Counted from the first letter of the stretch, positions 40,757 through 60,623 are shown. The stretch is DNA of 64,000 nucleotides from Patescibacteria group bacterium (GCA_041648575.1 JBAZOT010000001.1:31298-95297), one strand, 5' to 3'. Numbers and translations are program-made. The notes: a model not told the origin generated them from the sequence alone.

Positions 40757-41353
40757 ATGGAAACAGAGATTGAGGCAAAATTTTTGGATGTTGATCCCAA
40801 TCAGTTACGTCAGCTGTTAAAAAAATTAGGAGCTAAGTTAATTCATAAGGAAAGATTAATGAGGCGTCAAACCTTTGATTTGCTGGATTTGTTATTAAAA
40901 AATAAAGGCGGTTGGGTAAGAGTTCGTGACGAGGGTGATAAAATTACCCTGTCATATAAACAAGAAAAAGATCGTACTTTATATGGTATAAGAGAACTTA
41001 CGGTTGAGGTTTCGGATTTTGATTTAACTTGCGAGTTGCTAGAAACAATTGGTTTGGTAAAAAAAGGATATCAAGAAACTAAAAGGGAAACATGGATTTT
41101 AGATGAATGCGAAGTTACTATTGATACTTGGCCATGGATTCCTACGACAGTGGAAGTAGAGGGGAGTACTGAAAAATTAGTTAGACAGGTGTCTGGAAAA
41201 TTAGCTTTGGATTGGTCACATGTTTTACACGGTAGCGTGTCAATTGCCTATCAAAAATATTTTAAAGTGACTGATGATGAAATTAATGAATATCCAACTA
41301 TTACTTTTGGACCAGTGCCTGACTGGTTAGAGAAAAAAAGAATTAAAAAATAG
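40757..41353 (+). CDS. CYTH-domain protein (class IV adenylate cyclase / triphosphatase family)
   Basis: N-terminal EIEAKF (ExExK) hallmark and central acidic strands (VRVRDEGD, ELTVEV) typical of CYTH/CyaB. Confidence 0.65.
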   Translation: METEIEAKFLDVDPNQLRQLLKKLGAKLIHKERLMRRQTFDLLDLLLKNKGGWVRVRDEGDKITLSYKQEKDRTLYGIRELTVEVSDFDLTCELLETIGLVKKGYQETKRETWILDECEVTIDTWPWIPTTVEVEGSTEKLVRQVSGKLALDWSHVLHGSVSIAYQKYFKVTDDEINEYPTITFGPVPDWLEKKRIKK

Positions 41354-43783: not shown

Positions 43784-45574
43784 ATGCCTAATAATAACAA
43801 AACTCATCAACCAGACAACGAACAGGAATCAAACTCACCTTTAGCTTTTTTAAAGTGGATATCTTGGCCACTAGTTAAGTTGGGTAAGTTAATGTTTGGC
43901 AACATGAACCAACGCAAGCAGATGTGGTATTTGCTGGTGGGTATTTTGGCCATGTCTTTATTTACAGGTTTAATTGATTGGCCCAAAGTACCGAATTGGG
44001 TTCCGGGAACCAGTTTTTGGAATAAATTTAATGTGCAATTAGGGTTAGATTTACAGGGCGGTAGTCATCTAGTATATCAAGCAGATCTAAGTGGTATTCC
44101 CCCAGGAGAGGAGTCGTCAGCGGTAGAGGGGGTAAGGGATGTTATTGAAAGAAGGGTTAATTTTTTTGGTGTATCTGAACCAGTGGTGCAAACTAATAAG
44201 GCAGGAGATAATTGGCGAGTCATTATAGAATTACCTGGTATTAAAGATGTCAACGAAGCTATTAAGCTGATTGGTGAAACTCCAATATTGGAATTTAAAG
44301 AACAAGCCCCGGTACCAGTTCAACCAATCGATACAGAAACAGATGCGCGTGAACGTGCGGATAGCGTTTTAACAGACGCCTTAAAGCCCAAAACTGACTT
44401 TGCGGCATTGGCTAAAGAATTTTCAGAAGATGAAGGGTCACGTGAACAGGGTGGTGATTTGGGGTGGTTTAAGGCGGGTGTAATGGTACCCGAATTTGAG
44501 CAAGCTGTAATGGAATTAAAAGTAGATCAGATCAGTAAAACCTTGGTGCAAACGCAGTTTGGTTTTCATATTATCAAAAAGACTGGTGAGCGCCAGATTG
44601 CAGAAGGAGAACAAGAAGTTACAGAATACCAAGCTAGTCATATTTTGATTAAAACACCTAATGTTCAAGTTGGTGAAAACTGGCAAGCAACTGGCCTGTC
44701 TGGTAAGCAACTTAAACGCGCTCAAGTACAATTTGACAGTAGCGCTGGTTTACCAGAAGTACAGTTAGTTTTTAATGATGAAGGTAAGGATTTATTTGGC
44801 GAAATTACTGCTCGTAATGTAGGTCAACCAGTAGCTATTTTTTTAGATGGCGTACCTATTAGCGTTCCTACAGTACAGCAAGCAATAACTGGTGGAGAAG
44901 CAGTAATCACAGGAAATTTTTCCTTGACCGAAGCCAAGCAGTTGGTACAGCGCTTAAACGCTGGTGCCTTACCAGTTCCGATTCATTTAATTAATCAGCA
45001 GGTGATAGACGCAACTTTGGGTAAAGAATCTGTGGAAAAAAGTTTGTTAGCCGGCATCATTGGTTTATTGGCTGTGGCTTTGTTTATGATTATTTATTAT
45101 CGTTTGCCAGGATTTTTATCAGTATTAGCATTGTCTATTTATACTTTGATTACCTTTGCCATATTTAAATTATGGCCTATAACTTTAACCTTGCCTGGTA
45201 TCGCTGGTTATATTTTGTCTATTGGCATGGCGGTTGATGCTAATGTTTTAATTTTTGAAAGATTGAAAGAAGAGTTGCGGGCTGGCAAACCATTGCCGCA
45301 TGCGATAGAAGAGGGCTTTAAGCGCGCTTGGACTTCTATTCGCGATTCCAATATATCAAGTTTAATTACTTCTATTATTTTGATTTGGTTTGGCTCGTCC
45401 TTAATTAAGGGTTTTGCTATTACTTTGTCAATTGGTATTTTAATAAGTATGTTTTCAGCCATTACTATTACGAGGACTTTTTTGCGTTTGTTGGCCACTG
45501 GTAAATTTAATCAATTAACTTTTTTATTTGGCGTGTCTAAAAAGAAGCTGGCTGTACAGCAAAAAGTATTATGA
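43784..45574 (+). CDS. secD: Protein translocase subunit SecD with an embedded parvulin-type PPIase domain in the periplasmic region
   Basis: SecD blocks ([57 protein letters not shown]). A segment inserted between them carries GGDLGWF … FGFHIIK followed by ASHILIK (parvulin/PpiC signatures). Confidence 0.8.
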
Positions 45575-53629: not shown

Positions 53630-54463
53630 TTACAGATATACCTGAACGTACAAATTCGTGAGCTTAGAATGATATTGCCATCCCATTCCCACGAGTGTCT
53701 GAATGCCGTTTGGCCCCTGATAGACCTTAGTCCACCCGAGTTCCAGGTGGTCGAACGAGCGACTGTATTTGTTGTAGTTTGCCGTAACATAGGGGGCAAA
53801 CCATTTTGCGCGATATTCAACAAATCCGGTTGTGACCTTGTCATTCGCAACGAACCATTTCAGGGTCATTTCATCACATTCCACACCCGCTGCAATTCCT
53901 TTCCTCACTGTACTCGCAAATCCTCCGAGTTTGAGTGTGCCCAAAACAGTTTTCTGTTCGAGACACGCGTTCCATTCAATTTTTTTGTGGGGAGCTAAAT
54001 AGTAGCTTCCAACCTGGATAAATGGTCCATTAGCAAACTGCCGCGAGATTGCGAGTCCCGTTCCAACTCCGGGTATTGCCGCAATTGCTGGGGGTTCGAA
54101 GTGACCGCCCGACGTGAGTGGCATAGGCCGCATGATGAGCGTAATAGGACGAGGCATAAACCCTCCGGCGATTTTTATGGTTCCGAAATCCTTCGAAAGC
54201 ACGAACTTTCCGAAAACCGAATTACTGCTGGGAGAGAAGTCGTACCCTGCCCATGCACCCAGCTCAATGCTCTCAAATAGTGGGGCGGTAAAATCGCCAC
54301 CAACCCGAATACTTGCCTCGTGTGTGATCGTCAACTCGCTGTTGTAGCTACCGGTATAGAGGATGCCGGCGTATGTTTTCGTAACCTTAAGCGAGTCAAG
54401 TTGAGCAAAAGAAAAAGCGGTAAAAGCGAGAAGCAGCGTGAAAACAACAATAAGGTGTTTCAT
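53630..54463 (-). CDS. Outer-membrane beta-barrel-like protein (Sec signal peptide plus amphipathic beta-strand pattern), in a GC-rich (~50%) islet
   Basis: Start MKHLIVVFTLLLAFTAFSFA-QL (signal peptide, AXA-type cleavage), RBS AAAGAGGA. Body shows alternating hydrophobic/aromatic residues with frequent G/Y/F/W and a C-terminal …YVQVYL. GC markedly above the window average. The overlapping ORFs 53473-53850 and 53669-53998 are judged spurious. Confidence 0.5.
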   Translation of the reverse strand: MKHLIVVFTLLLAFTAFSFAQLDSLKVTKTYAGILYTGSYNSELTITHEASIRVGGDFTAPLFESIELGAWAGYDFSPSSNSVFGKFVLSKDFGTIKIAGGFMPRPITLIMRPMPLTSGGHFEPPAIAAIPGVGTGLAISRQFANGPFIQVGSYYLAPHKKIEWNACLEQKTVLGTLKLGGFASTVRKGIAAGVECDEMTLKWFVANDKVTTGFVEYRAKWFAPYVTANYNKYSRSFDHLELGWTKVYQGPNGIQTLVGMGWQYHSKLTNLYVQVYL

Positions 54464-54627
54464 AATATATCCTCTTTTTTTGTTAAGGAACTCTTGGGAT
54501 CTGCCCAAGTCAGTGCAAGTTTATCTTGCTAATAAATTACAATTTTCTATTTTTATTTAATAAATTAGTATAGACCTTAAGCTAATTTTTGTCAAGCGAA
54601 TGCTGTTAATGCTATACTTATTGTGCT

Positions 54628-55614
54628 ATGAACAAAGTTTGTGTTATTGGTGGCGCTACCTGGGATGTACTACTCACATCTAATGAAGCTAAATTTGTGA
54701 ATGTCAAAAGCGGTGGCCGTAAACAGCAAGCGTTAGCTTTTTTATATGGAGCAAAAATTGATACCATTGGCAGTGAATATTCTTTTGGTGGTGGAGCAGC
54801 CAATGTTTCAGTTGGTTTACGGCGATTGGGGATTCCAGTAGATATTGTTACACAGTTGGGAAACGATTGGCGCAGTAAAGATATAATTAATCATTTAAAA
54901 CAAGAGGGTGTTGGAATTAGCAATGTTATTTTTGATAAAAAAGCGTATTCAGCCATTTCTTTTATTATTACGTCAGGTGGCGCGCATGAACATGTAGCAT
55001 TTGTAGATCGGGGAGCAACTTTAAACTTTAATATTAATACTCAACTAGCAATTAAACCATTTCAATGGTTTTATATTACTTCTCTGGCTAATCCATCGTG
55101 GTTTAAATATATGGCCAGTTTTTTACGTCAGGCTAAGGTTAATCAAAAAAACGTTTTTTGGAATCCCGGCAGTTTACAACTTAAATCACCCAAACAATTA
55201 AGACCATTACTTAAATATTTAACTGTGTTGGATTTAAATAAAGATGAGGCTTTTAAATTGGTTTATGATTTTGGATTTCGGCCACATTCCATTGTTGAAG
55301 TAATGAGGATTATCCAGAAATTAGGCGTTAAAATTGTAATTGTAACTGCCGGTGCAAGCGGAGCGTATTGTTTGGCAGATGATAGAGTTGTTTTTTGCCC
55401 ATCCTTTCATGTAAAACCTAAAAATACTATTGGTGCAGGCGATGCTTTTGGATCTGGTTGGCTGGCAGGTTTTTTGAATTCACGTGGCGATATTAAACAA
55501 GCCATGCGGTGGGGTATGGCTAATAGCAATTCAGTAATTATGAAAGTGGGGGCACAAAAGGGATTATTACAAAAAACTAAATTATTAAATTTTGTTAAGC
55601 GCTATGGAAAATAA
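54628..55614 (+). CDS. PfkB-family carbohydrate kinase (ribokinase/fructokinase-like)
   Basis: N-terminal GG motif (FGGGAANVSVGLRRLG) and C-terminal anion-hole GAGDAFGSGWLAG. Confidence 0.8.
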   Translation: MNKVCVIGGATWDVLLTSNEAKFVNVKSGGRKQQALAFLYGAKIDTIGSEYSFGGGAANVSVGLRRLGIPVDIVTQLGNDWRSKDIINHLKQEGVGISNVIFDKKAYSAISFIITSGGAHEHVAFVDRGATLNFNINTQLAIKPFQWFYITSLANPSWFKYMASFLRQAKVNQKNVFWNPGSLQLKSPKQLRPLLKYLTVLDLNKDEAFKLVYDFGFRPHSIVEVMRIIQKLGVKIVIVTAGASGAYCLADDRVVFCPSFHVKPKNTIGAGDAFGSGWLAGFLNSRGDIKQAMRWGMANSNSVIMKVGAQKGLLQKTKLLNFVKRYGK

Positions 55615-56182
55615 ATTGGTACCAATTGAAATATCAGCACGGCATGTGCATTTATCTGACGTTGATCTAGAAAATTTATTTGGTAAAGATTATCAATTGC
55701 GGGTAGACAGAAAAATTTCTCAGCCTGGACAATTTGCTGCCAAAGAAAAGGTTTCTATTAAAACGAATAACGGAGAATTGTCAGTTAGAGTTATTGGTCC
55801 AACCCGTGATCAAACACAAGTTGAGCTTGCTGTAACTGATTGTATTAAATTAGGAATTAAGCCGGAAGTTCGCCTTTCTGGTGATTTAGTAAATACTCCC
55901 GGTTGTATTTTAGTAGGGCCCAAAAGCGAAGCGATATTAACACAAGGCGTGATGGTAGCCCAAAGACATTTGCATATTAACCCCGAGCAAGCTGAGCAGT
56001 ATAATTTAAAGAATGACGATGTTATTTGTATAAAAGTTGGCAGCAGCCGTAAAGTTATTTTTCATCAAGTAATCGTAAGGTGTCATTCGGGCGTAGATGA
56101 ACTTTCCTTTATGATAGATACAGACGAGGCCAACGCTGCTGGTTTAATAGGCGGAGAACAGGGTGAAATAATTATTAGATAG
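55592..56182 (+). CDS. pduL: Phosphate acyltransferase PduL (phosphotransacetylase, PduL type)
   Basis: Duplicated PduL motifs (ISARHVHLS… and AQRHLHIN…), DTDEANAAG near the C-terminus. Confidence 0.75.
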   Translation: MLSAMENKLVPIEISARHVHLSDVDLENLFGKDYQLRVDRKISQPGQFAAKEKVSIKTNNGELSVRVIGPTRDQTQVELAVTDCIKLGIKPEVRLSGDLVNTPGCILVGPKSEAILTQGVMVAQRHLHINPEQAEQYNLKNDDVICIKVGSSRKVIFHQVIVRCHSGVDELSFMIDTDEANAAGLIGGEQGEIIIR

Positions 56183-56188
56183 ATATTT

Positions 56189-57355
56189 ATGATTATTGAT
56201 CATAAAACACAATATATTCTAGTTTTAAATGCCGGAAGCGCTACTTTGAAATGGGCTTTGTATACGAGCAGTGATTTGCAAGAGTGCGGGCGCGGTGCAG
56301 TAGAACGCATTGGTTTAGCAAATTCTTTTAGTGAAAATAGGATTGCTGGCAAATTGATAGTGAATAAACAAAAAATCAGCAGTCACAACCAAGCACTAAC
56401 ACAGGTTTTAAAATTAATTGCTTGGCACCATATTCCATTGTCACGCATTATCAAAGTAGGGCATCGAGTAGTTCATGGTGGTGATAAATTTATTAAACCC
56501 ACTAAATTAAGCCAAAAAGTGATTCAGCAGTTGAGCGTCTATAACAATTTAGCGCCGCTGCATAATCCAATTGAATTAGAAACAATTAAGCAGTCGTTTA
56601 AATTTTTAGGTACGACTGAACACTGGGCAGTGTTTGATACAGCGTGGTTTGCTGATTTACCAGATTATGCCAAATATTATGCCTTGCCTTTGGATTTACA
56701 AAAAAAGAAAAATATCAGACGCTTTGGTTTTCATGGTATTTCTCACCAGTATGTTGCCACCAAAGCTGCCGGATTATTAAATAAAAATTTAGCAGAAGTG
56801 AACTTGATTACTTGTCACCTGGGAAGCGGTTCAAGCGTCACTGCGGTAAAAAATGGTAAAGTGGTTGATACGTCGTTTGGCTTTACTCCGCTAGAGGGTT
56901 TAATGATGACCACGCGACCCGGGGACGTTGATCCGGGTTTGATATTGTATTTATTTGAAGAATTAAAATTAAAACCAGCAGTAGTTAAAAAAATGTTGAA
57001 TGATGAGTCAGGTTTAATGGGAATAGCTGGTGTAAAAGATATGAGGGAAGTTTTAACTCGGGCTGGTTATGAGGTGTTAGGATATAAATCACGGAAAAAT
57101 TATAGCGTCCAAGAAAAAATTAATGCAAAATTAGCGCTAAAAATGTTTATTTATCGAGTACAAAAATATCTGGGCGCTTATGCTGCGATTTTGGGTAAAG
57201 TAGATGCCATTGTGTTTACTGGCGGTATTGGTGAGCGTAATGAAACTATCCGCACTTTCATTATGAAGGGACTACCAACGCTTAAACATATTCAGGAATT
57301 TGTTATTCCTGCTAACGAGGAGCTAGCGATTGCTAGGGAGATAGTTAAATTATAA
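56189..57355 (+). CDS. ackA: Acetate kinase
   Basis: ILVLNAGSATLKWALY N-terminus, HLGSGSSVTAV, ASKHP-family fold, 388 aa. Confidence 0.85.
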   Translation: MIIDHKTQYILVLNAGSATLKWALYTSSDLQECGRGAVERIGLANSFSENRIAGKLIVNKQKISSHNQALTQVLKLIAWHHIPLSRIIKVGHRVVHGGDKFIKPTKLSQKVIQQLSVYNNLAPLHNPIELETIKQSFKFLGTTEHWAVFDTAWFADLPDYAKYYALPLDLQKKKNIRRFGFHGISHQYVATKAAGLLNKNLAEVNLITCHLGSGSSVTAVKNGKVVDTSFGFTPLEGLMMTTRPGDVDPGLILYLFEELKLKPAVVKKMLNDESGLMGIAGVKDMREVLTRAGYEVLGYKSRKNYSVQEKINAKLALKMFIYRVQKYLGAYAAILGKVDAIVFTGGIGERNETIRTFIMKGLPTLKHIQEFVIPANEELAIAREIVKL

Positions 57356-57430: not shown

Positions 57431-58516
57431 ATGAAAAAAGAAGATGAATATATAAGCATAATTAGATCATCCGGCTTACGTCACGTCAGTTCTAGAAATC
57501 TACCCTTGATAACGGTTAGCTGTATTTTTTTTGGTTATAATGAAATACTTAAAAGTCAGGTTGGTTATCAATACGGCACAATTGCTAATATTGGCATAAA
57601 AGATAATGCATATTTTCTGATCAATGAGGATAAAATTGGTAGGTTATTCGATAAATTTGTAAGTAAGAGAAAAGAAAAAATTTTAATAAAAAAATTTTCT
57701 AAAAAATTAATTGATAATAAAAGTGTTTTGAAATCTTTGATGTCTAAAAATTATTTCAATTCACTTCCAACTATTTTAGACTTGTATCTCCAAGTGCTAG
57801 GTCAAATTGGTTTTTATAATTCTATGATGAGGTATATCAAGGATGATAAAAACAAAGCCAAATATTGGCGAAGTTTGTTTAATTTTGTATCAAAAGATAA
57901 AGATAGGGTAGCAAACTTAATTTATTGCGTTATTGAACCTTTATTAAAAAAAAGTTGCCAGAGTATAGGTAGAGATTTTAATTTTGATGGTGATCTTTTA
58001 AAATATATGACTTTACGGGAGATGCAAGAGTATTTATTAACAAAAAGAATAAATAAAAAAATATTACTAACTTTAAAGAAAAGGAGAGAAGGTTATGTTT
58101 ATTTATATTATAAAGAAAAAGATTATGTACTAATTGATAAACCTTTTGTTCATAAAGTATATAAGGAATTTATTATTCCGAAAAAAATAGTTAATATAAT
58201 AAAAGGCGTGCCGGCTTATCCTGGTAAAGTTGTTGGAAAAGTATTTAATACTTTTCATGGTTTAAAAACAGTCAAGCATGGTAGTATATTAGTTACAAAT
58301 GTCACCAATCCGAAAGATAATGTTTTATTAAAAAAGTTTGCTGCTATTGTCACTAATGAAGGTGGTTTACTCTCGCATGCTTCAATAATCTCAAGAGAGT
58401 TTAAAATTCCTTGTATTATTGGTACCAAAATAGCTACGCAAATATTTAAAGACGGGGATAGAGTGGAAGTAGATGCTAATAAGGGGATAGTTAAATTATT
58501 AAAAAAGAAAAGTTGA
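57431..58516 (+). CDS. Protein with C-terminal PEP-utilizing-enzyme mobile (phosphohistidine swivel) domain; N-terminal 270 aa unassigned
   Basis: C-terminus …TNEGGLLSHASIISREFKIPCIIGTKIATQ…DGDRVEVDANKGIV matches the GG-x-SHAAI-x-RE-x-x-P-x-VVG swivel His motif. Confidence 0.6.
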   Translation: MKKEDEYISIIRSSGLRHVSSRNLPLITVSCIFFGYNEILKSQVGYQYGTIANIGIKDNAYFLINEDKIGRLFDKFVSKRKEKILIKKFSKKLIDNKSVLKSLMSKNYFNSLPTILDLYLQVLGQIGFYNSMMRYIKDDKNKAKYWRSLFNFVSKDKDRVANLIYCVIEPLLKKSCQSIGRDFNFDGDLLKYMTLREMQEYLLTKRINKKILLTLKKRREGYVYLYYKEKDYVLIDKPFVHKVYKEFIIPKKIVNIIKGVPAYPGKVVGKVFNTFHGLKTVKHGSILVTNVTNPKDNVLLKKFAAIVTNEGGLLSHASIISREFKIPCIIGTKIATQIFKDGDRVEVDANKGIVKLLKKKS

Positions 58517-59988
58517 TGGATAATCGTAACTTATTGAAACAAATTAATAAGGTTGATTGGGAATATGTTATTAATCGCCGGGAAGCGTTGCTATTTCGAT
58601 CTCTGACAGATACTTGCTATCAGTATCAAGTCATTGGCATCCATTGGAAACCTAAATACATTTTGCGTTTAATAAGCGGAGAATTTTATCATAGCCACCA
58701 CGAGTTGGAGGGGTTGCGTAACAGCATAGCTGAGTATAGTGATAGATTGGGAACTGATTTTAAAACAAGACTCCTAAAGTATATTGGTAATCTAGATAGA
58801 TTAGCATCCCGAATTGAGGAAATTGATTGTAATAAATTAAACCATCGTCAGATTATAAGTTTGCTCGTTTCCTATTATCAAGCGGCACTTAAAGCGCATT
58901 GTTTTTTATTACCTTTTCCAGTAGGAGATAGTATTATTGCCTCAGAAATAATCAAGTTGCTCCTTACTGCCTCAGATGAGCAAAAACGTCGGTGGTTGGC
59001 TATTTTATCTTCTCCAGCTAAAGAAAATAGCCATACCCAAGAAGAGCGCTCGTTATATCGTTTGGCTATTGCCTATCAAGTAAATAAACAGCAATATATC
59101 AGATTACTACGAAAGCATGTTAATAAATATGCCTGGATAGGAGCACGGGGATATTATTTTGATAATGCCTGGAACAAAAAAGATATTGAAGCTAGGGTTA
59201 AAAATTTATTTTTTCAAGGTAAAAATCCTGCCAAAGAGCTTAAATATCTTGATAATTTCCAAAAAGACCAGAAACGTGCCAGGACTGAATTAATTAAAGA
59301 GCTTAAGATAGATAAAAACCCCCGCCTTTATAGATTAGTTAAACTAGCTTCTGAATTTGCTTATATACGCACTTGGCGTACTGATTTAATCTATAGAGCA
59401 GGTTACAAAGTGCGCCATCTTTTTTATAAGGTGGCTGATAATTTAGATGTTTCCCACAGCGACATTATTTATCTGACATTTCAGGAAATTATTACTTCGG
59501 CAAAAAAAGGTGAGTCATCAATACCAAAAAGTGAAATAATTAAACGCCAACAATTTTTCGCTGCCTTCTTATTACAAGGTAAATATCAAGTTTTGTCTGG
59601 TAATATTTGGAAGCAGCTGTTAAAAAATTATAAGCATTCATCTAAACAGGAAACAGAATTCACTGGTACGTCTGCCTATACAGGTAAAGTCATCGGTAAA
59701 GCAAAAATAGTGATGCAAATTCGTGATATAAGTAAAGTTCAGGCTGGCGATATATTAGTGGCGCCTATGACTTTTCCAAATTTTATTGCAGCCATGGAAA
59801 AAGCCAGTGCTTTTGTGACTGACGAAGGTGGAATATTATGTCACGCCGCTATTATTTCTCGCGAAATGAAAAAACCTTGTATAATAGGCACTAAAATTGC
59901 TACTCAAGTTTTGAAGGATGGTGATTTAGTAGAGGTAGATGCCAATAAAAGGATTGTAAAAATATTAAAAAAATCCCGATTCAAGTAA
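58513..59988 (+). CDS. Paralogous protein with C-terminal PEP-utilizing-enzyme mobile domain; N-terminal ~400 aa unassigned (RPH/PEP-synthase-like middle domain?)
   Basis: C-terminus …TDEGGILCHAAIISREMKKPCIIGTKIATQ…DGDLVEVDANKRIV; start overlaps the upstream stop (ATGA). Confidence 0.6.
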   Translation: MMDNRNLLKQINKVDWEYVINRREALLFRSLTDTCYQYQVIGIHWKPKYILRLISGEFYHSHHELEGLRNSIAEYSDRLGTDFKTRLLKYIGNLDRLASRIEEIDCNKLNHRQIISLLVSYYQAALKAHCFLLPFPVGDSIIASEIIKLLLTASDEQKRRWLAILSSPAKENSHTQEERSLYRLAIAYQVNKQQYIRLLRKHVNKYAWIGARGYYFDNAWNKKDIEARVKNLFFQGKNPAKELKYLDNFQKDQKRARTELIKELKIDKNPRLYRLVKLASEFAYIRTWRTDLIYRAGYKVRHLFYKVADNLDVSHSDIIYLTFQEIITSAKKGESSIPKSEIIKRQQFFAAFLLQGKYQVLSGNIWKQLLKNYKHSSKQETEFTGTSAYTGKVIGKAKIVMQIRDISKVQAGDILVAPMTFPNFIAAMEKASAFVTDEGGILCHAAIISREMKKPCIIGTKIATQVLKDGDLVEVDANKRIVKILKKSRFK

Positions 59989-60015
59989 TTTTTGAATCGG
60001 GATAATTATTAGACA
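59983..60015. terminator. 11-bp perfect hairpin TCCCGATTCAA/TTGAATCGGGA between the convergent genes (includes the stop of the upstream gene); bidirectional terminator
   Basis: Seen directly. Confidence 0.55.
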
Positions 60016-60035: not shown

Positions 60036-60623
60036 TTAATCATTGAGGTATTCAAACACCCCTGCGTTAGGATTGTATCTGAAAATATGAATTAGATCTT
60101 TCCACATTTCTTCACTGCGAGCCCATCCTTTAAGCATTTCAGTATTAGTAACTCCTCTAGCCCAACCAATAAGTCCCGCGACTATCGGTCTGTGTGTACC
60201 AATTAGTACTTTTACTTCTCCTGACATGTCTTGAGATAGATGTGACATTCGTAGATTATTGGTAACAAATAATATGGCGTTCTTTTGCCAATAATCGTAC
60301 CATTCTTTTTCACATTGGGGATAAAAATATGTTTTTCCACTTTGTCGACTAGCATGTTGACCAAGAAGACGGCTTGTCCGCCAATCCATATTAAGAGCCA
60401 TACACAGTATTGAATTGACATCATTACCGCGACATAACCGCGATGAGTACGCGAGATCGAATGGTCCTAATTCCTTGATTTTAGGAACAATGGATTGTAT
60501 CTGCATCATTCCTTGTTCATTCATTGGGGGATTTGATAGTAACACTGGGTCTTCAGTTGTTTGAAATTTCATCTTATCACCATGCACGACGAATACAATT
60601 GTAAAGATCATTATTTTCTCCAA
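60036..60623 (-). CDS. Histidine phosphatase superfamily (phosphoglycerate-mutase-like) protein
   Basis: N-terminal VFVVHGD (RHG-like) and a second His block IGTHRPIV; assignment moderate. Confidence 0.45.
   Translation of the reverse strand: MEKIMIFTIVFVVHGDKMKFQTTEDPVLLSNPPMNEQGMMQIQSIVPKIKELGPFDLAYSSRLCRGNDVNSILCMALNMDWRTSRLLGQHASRQSGKTYFYPQCEKEWYDYWQKNAILFVTNNLRMSHLSQDMSGEVKVLIGTHRPIVAGLIGWARGVTNTEMLKGWARSEEMWKDLIHIFRYNPNAGVFEYLND

Follow-up and report, generated by a model that had tools for sequence, protein, structure and literature searches.

A tightly coupled gene pair of a Patescibacterium that probably encodes H-type subunits of a split, RPH-like dikinase

What is the role of two adjoining genes whose products both end in the phosphohistidine swivel domain of phosphoenolpyruvate (PEP)-utilising enzymes but contain no ATP-grasp or PEP-binding domain? 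The question is raised by two open reading frames, ORF1 and ORF2, found at 57431-59988 of a 64,000-nucleotide stretch (the window) of the genome of Patescibacteria group bacterium GCA_041648575.1 (JBAZOT010000001.1:31298-95297). A preliminary description, made from the sequence alone, offered three interpretations, namely a split phosphotransfer enzyme with its catalytic domains encoded elsewhere, a relative of rifampin phosphotransferase (RPH) that has lost its ATP-grasp domain, or a phosphorelay using acetyl-phosphate or PEP. The analysis described here favours the first two of these over the third, and ORF1 and ORF2 are probably paralogous H-type subunits of a split, RPH-like small-molecule dikinase.

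Two known systems frame this reading. RPH, as summarised in PMC4844700, combines an ATP-grasp domain, a rifampin (RIF)-binding domain and a His swivel domain. HpeHI is a two-component dikinase in which HpeH is the substrate-binding and swivel subunit and HpeI is a stand-alone ATP-grasp protein, with PpsAB and CreHI as homologues (PMC12167813).

Domain content and fold of ORF1 and ORF2

The features of the pair are as follows.

57431..58516, + strand: ORF1, probable short-form H-type dikinase subunit of 361 amino acids, with a reduced helical N-domain (residues ~1-250) and then the swivel domain
58274..58486, + strand: swivel domain of ORF1 (PF00391), residues 282-352, with the catalytic His316 at nucleotides 58376-58378
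58513..58518, + strand: gene junction TTGATG, with the ORF1 stop codon TGA at 58514-58516 and the ORF2 ATG at 58516-58518
58516..59988, + strand: ORF2, probable long-form H-type dikinase subunit of 490 amino acids from the ATG (491 from a TTG at 58513), with a RIF-binding-domain-like helical N-domain (residues ~1-375) and then the swivel domain
59740..59949, + strand: swivel domain of ORF2 (PF00391), residues 410-479, with the catalytic His443 at nucleotides 59842-59844

The two genes are intact and tightly coupled. Their junction reads AGT-TGA-TGG, which gives an overlap of 1 nt (TGATG) with the ATG start and of four bases (TTGA) with the TTG start at 58513, and not the ATGA overlap that had been proposed. 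Public gene calls take the ATG, and the same 1-nt overlap is present in the duplicate contig L002. Hence the length of 361 amino acids given initially for ORF1 stands, whereas 491 for ORF2 holds from the TTG only.

As had been suggested, both proteins end in a PEP-utiliser swivel domain, since PF00391 is matched at the C-terminus of ORF1 with E=2.3e-22 and of ORF2 with E=7.6e-24. This is the sole Pfam domain in either protein, and neither PF01326 (PPDK_N, the ATP-grasp domain) nor PF02896 (PEP-utilizers_C) was detected, in agreement with the earlier statement that ATP-grasp and PEP-binding domains are lacking. The swivel-His motif of ORF1, EGGLLSHASIISREFKIPCII (also written EGGLLSHASIISRE), contains His316, and that of ORF2, EGGILCHAAIISREMKKPCII (also written EGGILCHAAIISRE), contains His443, which is preceded by an invariant Cys. 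His316 is unchanged throughout the family alignment A2, and the catalytic His is invariant or nearly so in the family alignments of both proteins.

The sequence of the swivel domain is closest to that of PEP synthase, and among the names given to homologues by the Joint Genome Institute (JGI) are 'pyruvate, water dikinase' and 'phosphoenolpyruvate synthase/pyruvate phosphate dikinase', which could mean that the two ORFs are decayed pieces of one ppsA or ppdK gene. Each ORF, however, has its own complete swivel domain where ppsA has one, and each has hundreds of full-length homologues of equal length. Moreover, the AlphaFold2 (AF2) folds of both proteins are compact and confident, and the N-domains align to no domain of PEP synthase or pyruvate phosphate dikinase (PPDK) in either sequence-profile or structure comparison, as the preliminary description had anticipated. 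A pseudogene, the outcome that would have overturned that description, was therefore rejected, and its probability is negligible.

The N-terminal regions had been thought only weakly similar to each other. At the level of sequence this is correct, as the 57% identity between ORF1 and ORF2 is confined to ~103 residues of the swivel region, but profile-profile homology extends to the C-terminal 186 columns (hhalign probability 100). The secondary-structure elements run in the same order in the two proteins, and ORF1 resembles ORF2 in shortened form.

Both proteins have a helical domain resembling the RIF-binding domain on the N-terminal side of the swivel domain. RPH is their closest structure, and no other solved structure aligns past the swivel domain. 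A profile search of PDB sequences gave PEP synthase (8a8e) as the best match to the swivel domain and extended farther upstream only in RPH (5fbs/5hv1). Similarly, the only NCBIfam matches that continue upstream of the swivel domain are to RPH, PRK06241, PigC and RedH-type models, with ORF2 residues 247-486 aligning to RedH 633-879. The scores nevertheless lie below all of the curated NCBIfam cutoffs considered (RPH NF041857/NF000283, PRK08296, PRK06241, PigC and RedH), at best 91-114 bits against 578-1700, and ORF1 and ORF2 fall in no curated family.

The ATP-grasp partner and the proposed mechanism

Relatives of the pair were compared at 78 loci from species-representative genomes, of which 45 are labelled as Candidate Phyla Radiation (CPR) and 14 as DPANN or unclassified archaea, with other or generic labels for the rest. 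The loci were scanned with custom hidden Markov models (HMMs), and the non-redundant set comprises 79 loci.

It is in these relatives that the PPDK_N domain is found, either fused or adjacent to orthologues of the two proteins. The protein P0066 joins it to an ORF2 orthologue (43% identity across the whole length), and in five further one-piece proteins PPDK_N comes first, then an ORF2-type N-domain and last the swivel domain. At the woesearchaeotal locus L084 an ORF1 orthologue (54% identical) is followed directly by a gene for a 312-amino-acid PPDK_N protein, and at L085 an ORF2 orthologue (46% identical) lies within an array that ends in a PPDK_N gene of 315 amino acids. PPDK_N occurs exactly once in 29 of the 79 non-redundant loci, beside 1-10 swivel genes, and an unbiased clustering of neighbouring ORFs across all loci returned it as the sole strongly recurrent partner family. 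The stand-alone protein is strongly conserved, the best 120 matches listed being 61-100% identical and 309-332 amino acids in length.

No PPDK_N was found in the 64-kb window, either by tblastn or with an HMM trained on 21 stand-alone PPDK_N sequences, nor in the ~8 kb upstream of it, which brings the genome covered to ~72 kb in total; the 120 matches listed include no homologue on the 147,232-bp contig. The idea of a split enzyme finds support in the relatives but not in this part of the genome itself.

A mechanism can be proposed from the homologous RPH, PpsAB, CreHI and HpeHI. ATP would be bound by a distinct ATP-grasp protein of ~312 amino acids (the PPDK_N or I-type subunit), which would be encoded elsewhere in the genome. 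The swivel His, His316 or His443, would then attack the beta-phosphate to give a pyrophosphorylated His, from which the gamma-phosphate would leave as inorganic phosphate, with departure of AMP. Finally, the swivel domain is expected to return to its own helical N-domain and to phosphorylate a hydroxyl of the small molecule bound there. The N-domains of ORF1 and ORF2 differ, and therefore their substrates should differ too. The present analysis itself establishes the domain content, the fold, the intact catalytic His, the size of the family, the gene arrays and the linkage to PPDK_N in relatives, whereas the dependence on ATP, a partner acting in trans in this genome, small molecules as substrates and the part played by the neighbouring phosphatase-like protein are inferred.

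Several points weigh against the assignment as a split dikinase. The scores are far under all curated NCBIfam cutoffs; with RPH, for instance, 72 bits compare with a cutoff of 999. RPH and HpeH have longer N-domains, and ORF1 can be aligned with RPH over 171 residues only. The fold evidence comes from predicted structures, none of them solved, and no substrate can be named for either protein. The partner is unproven in this genome because no PPDK_N is encoded in the region covered. In addition, HpeH does not associate stably with HpeI in vitro (PMC12167813), which makes it plausible that one ATP-grasp protein could serve many partners.

Neighbouring genes and the CPR/DPANN arrays

Three further features flank the pair.

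54628..57355, + strand: genes for a pfkB-family kinase, PduL (PF06130) and AckA (PF00871), from Pfam matches, directly upstream of ORF1
59973..60003, no strand: palindromic hairpin with a 12-bp stem, from a consensus scan only, between the convergent ORF2 and His_Phos-like gene
60036..60623, - strand: small, divergent His_Phos-like gene of 195 amino acids, convergent with ORF2 (alignment A3)

The gap between AckA and ORF1 is 75 nt, with no terminator-like site there on the + strand, and pfkB-pduL-ackA-ORF1-ORF2 is a probable operon. Downstream of ORF2 are the convergent small gene, a DUF5654 gene and POR. The pair had accordingly been placed at the acetyl-phosphate/pyruvate node, but whilst the genes are indeed there, their adjacency is not conserved. 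PduL and AckA are encoded at none of the 78 other loci, and a conserved link to this node was rejected.

This context bears on the alternative that transfer is independent of ATP-grasp, with the swivel His charged by acetyl-phosphate (through PduL/AckA), PEP or a phosphorylated small molecule in a phosphorelay or transphosphorylase. The probable co-transcription would suit such a scheme, as would the lack of PPDK_N in ~72 kb of the genome, and HpeH alone can move phosphate from 4-phosphoacetophenone to acetovanillone (PMC12167813). It is the last two of these that leave the scheme some weight. Against it stand the absence of PduL and AckA from the other loci, the orthologues of both ORF1 and ORF2 that adjoin or are fused with PPDK_N, and the fact that no PEP-binding domain recurs near the arrays, and the scheme as a whole is quite unlikely.

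The protein encoded at 60036-60623 matches Pfam His_Phos_1 (PF00300, branch 1 of the histidine phosphatase superfamily) with E=1.2e-3 and 18.9 bits, under the cutoff of 21.7 bits, which a relative at L009 passes with 39.7 bits. Where the superfamily has the catalytic RHG motif, the sequence here is xHGDK with no Arg before it; Arg65 is invariant, and a second His (in THRP) is limited to this subgroup. An identity as SixA was rejected, as no specific NCBIfam match was obtained. His_Phos-like proteins form four sub-clusters present at 22 of the 79 loci, in most cases no more than 250 bp from a swivel gene, and are the next most frequent neighbours after PPDK_N; the short-form gene is usually on the opposite strand to the swivel genes, as it is here. 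The protein probably either removes the phosphate from the product by hydrolysis or resets the phospho-His. The ORF2 stop codon lies within the loop of the intervening hairpin, which, judged by its sequence, is likely to be a bidirectional terminator.

The window is otherwise an ordinary Patescibacteria chromosome, with a dcw cluster, type IV pilus genes, SecA, SecDF, Suf and SOD. A role for the pair in anti-phage defence was considered, as tandem, quickly diversifying paralogues are common in defence islands, but the neighbours at this locus are housekeeping genes and PADLOC gave no match for ORF1, ORF2, the phosphatase-like protein or a stand-alone PPDK_N. A defence role was therefore rejected as highly improbable.

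Among the other genes of the window, one for a SecD homologue (43784-45574, + strand) unusually joins a foldase to a translocon subunit, as residues 181-267, lying between SecD_1st and the P1-head, form a PpiC-type peptidyl-prolyl isomerase (Rotamase) domain. A protein of 292 amino acids (53630-54508, - strand) has a signal-peptide-like N-terminus and no Pfam match, and reads as beta-rich and porin-like, which would be unexpected in a Patescibacterium, presumed to have a single membrane. At 40757-41353 (+ strand) a CYTH-domain protein of the triphosphate tunnel metalloenzyme family is encoded, followed by a 166-amino-acid ORF without a Pfam match.

ORF1 and ORF2 belong to a large, apparently undescribed CPR/DPANN gene family. 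When only the N-domain of ORF2 was used in an exhaustive search, 683 cluster representatives at 50% identity were returned. In all, 281 swivel-domain genes were counted in 81 loci (median 3 per locus, maximum 13, with five or more in 22 loci), and they fall into two size classes of 340-400 and 430-530 amino acids. Consecutive same-strand swivel genes overlap or lie no more than 20 nt apart in 118 of 198 pairs. Within arrays the median identity is 22.7% for N-domains against 54.7% for swivel domains, and the catalytic His is kept in 273 of the 275 motif-matched swivel domains. An obligate ORF1-ORF2 pair is not supported, as orthologues occur apart; the pair is kept only in a sister genome (P0002/P0122, on one 151-kb contig), and at L003 a distant ORF1-like gene lies two genes away.

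The residue at -2 to the catalytic His, among the 275 domains of L005-L082, is Thr in 182 and Leu in 68, the latter including ORF1 and ORF2. This is the position of the regulatory Thr of PEP synthase and PPDK, and some paralogues might therefore be regulated by phosphorylation, unlike ORF1 and ORF2.

Some of the family are polyproteins, giant uninterrupted ORFs with one PPDK_N and 3-5 complete modules. They include proteins of 2711 amino acids at L045 (4154-12289; PPDK_N and five N-domain/swivel modules), 2374 amino acids at L010 (2559-9683; five swivel domains with PPDK_N at the C-terminus) and 1617 amino acids at L070 (6824-11677).

Other neighbours recur beside the arrays. An HD-domain protein of ~200 amino acids is found at six loci (L006 4103-4699, L033 11028-11633, L042 4316-4918, L050 14676-15290, L062 6355-6963 and L080 11810-12403), and P0114 is an ORF2-like protein with such a domain fused at its C-terminus. 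A cytidylyltransferase-like protein (PF01467, ~137 amino acids) is found at five (L025 7797-8210, L047 7563-7976, L057 9166-9600, L064 3317-3790 and L079 3242-3652), a hint that some phosphorylated products could be further activated with nucleotides.

Arrays of the CPR/DPANN style also occur in metagenome-assembled genomes labelled Gammaproteobacteria, Planctomycetota, Methanosarcinales, Methylomirabilota and Bdellovibrionales (L007/L058/L062, L011, L021, L029, L043, L059, L063, L067, L073, L020, L070, L064 and L068), which could reflect mis-binning, mislabelling or a wider distribution.

The same split-dikinase chemistry might serve to inactivate antibiotics or other xenobiotics, in which case the genes would form an RPH-like resistance battery and would not act in metabolism or scavenging. 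RPH is after all the closest structure, the tandem arrays resemble a repertoire for detoxification in that their binding domains diverge fast, and rph-like matches have been counted in CPR resistome surveys (PMC8651080). The ORF2 orthogroup, however, retains 45-49% identity across CPR and DPANN, with many invariant Arg, Trp and His residues in its N-domain, which favours a common metabolite over a variable toxin, and the associated phosphatases would reverse a detoxifying phosphorylation. A resistance battery is hence considered unlikely.

The split dikinase of CPR and DPANN looks like one conserved ATP-grasp engine with many diverged substrate adaptors. A fuller version of this arrangement can be put forward only tentatively, as a modular platform of one engine and many adaptors, in which a single, highly conserved stand-alone ATP-grasp protein would charge up to a dozen or more paralogous adaptors with diverged binding pockets, in some cases concatenated into polyproteins, with ORF1 and ORF2 served in trans from a distant ATP-grasp gene, and which together with the His-phosphatase-like proteins and HD hydrolases would phosphorylate, and thereby trap or activate, host-derived small molecules of many kinds. 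Arrays of up to 13 genes take up most of a 20-kb stretch, or ~2% of the genome, a share that rests on our own genome estimate of ~1 Mb (one complete example is 977 kb), and this implies an important function, possibly the scavenging or trapping of host metabolites, or detoxification. If the platform is real, one ATP-grasp protein with many swivel partners and polyproteins would be a new organisational principle for dikinases, the arrays would represent a natural library of substrate-binding modules, and the adaptors would constitute a major, so far unrecognised metabolic investment of reduced-genome episymbionts.

Proteins of the ORF1 and ORF2 types are labelled publicly as 'PEP-utilizing enzyme', 'phosphoenolpyruvate synthase/pyruvate phosphate dikinase' or 'pyruvate, water dikinase'. 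They contain no PEP/pyruvate-binding domain, and gluconeogenic capacity would therefore be inferred wrongly in metabolic reconstructions of CPR/DPANN genomes if such proteins were taken for PEP synthase or PPDK. In the searchable literature no published description of the arrays was found, only the counts of rph-like matches (PMC8651080). Split dikinases themselves are already known; what was not found described are the shortened H-type subunits, the many H genes per ATP-grasp gene in arrays, the polyproteins and the association with phosphatases.

Comparison with known dikinases

The swivel phosphohistidine domain is common to ORF1, ORF2, PEP synthase, PPDK and enzyme I of the phosphotransferase system. 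Unlike PEP synthase and PPDK, the two proteins have neither PPDK_N nor the PEP-utilizers_C TIM barrel, their N-domains are unrelated, they do not show the three-domain architecture, and the residue at -2 is Leu instead of the regulatory Thr.

The prodiginine-condensing enzymes PigC, RedH and HapC are closer in one respect, as residues 245-486 of ORF2 align to the C-terminal 240-250 residues of PigC and RedH. These are one-piece proteins of ~880 amino acids that include ATP-grasp and are encoded in pigment clusters, whereas ORF1 and ORF2 have no such context and score 68-77 bits with the PigC/RedH models against cutoffs of 1300-1350.

RPH (Listeria monocytogenes, 5HV1/5FBS) and the PRK06241-type proteins have an N-terminal fused ATP-grasp domain that is absent from ORF1 and ORF2. 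Moreover, identity to RPH is only 17-20%, far under the RPH equivalog cutoffs in score.

The best correspondence is with the H/A subunit of HpeHI (Rhodococcus), PpsAB (phenylphosphate synthase of Thauera aromatica) and CreHI (Corynebacterium glutamicum). As in these systems, ATP-grasp would reside on a separate polypeptide, an RPH-type helical domain precedes the C-terminal swivel domain, and the catalytic His lies within ~50 residues of the C-terminus. HpeH shares with ORF1 and ORF2 that RPH is the only solved structure to align past the swivel domain. There are also clear differences. HpeH (theoretical 71.1 kDa) is much longer than ORF1 (361 amino acids) or ORF2 (490 amino acids), and the PRK08296-type NCBIfam models (~570-630 profile positions), which presumably represent PpsA-like proteins, match ORF1 and ORF2 in the swivel region only. 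The substrates of HpeHI, PpsAB and CreHI are phenolics of aromatic catabolism, to which nothing at the ORF1/ORF2 locus points, and no I gene is adjacent within the window. Finally, the characterised two-component systems are described as having one H and one I subunit, whereas the CPR/DPANN arrays encode many H subunits for each I.
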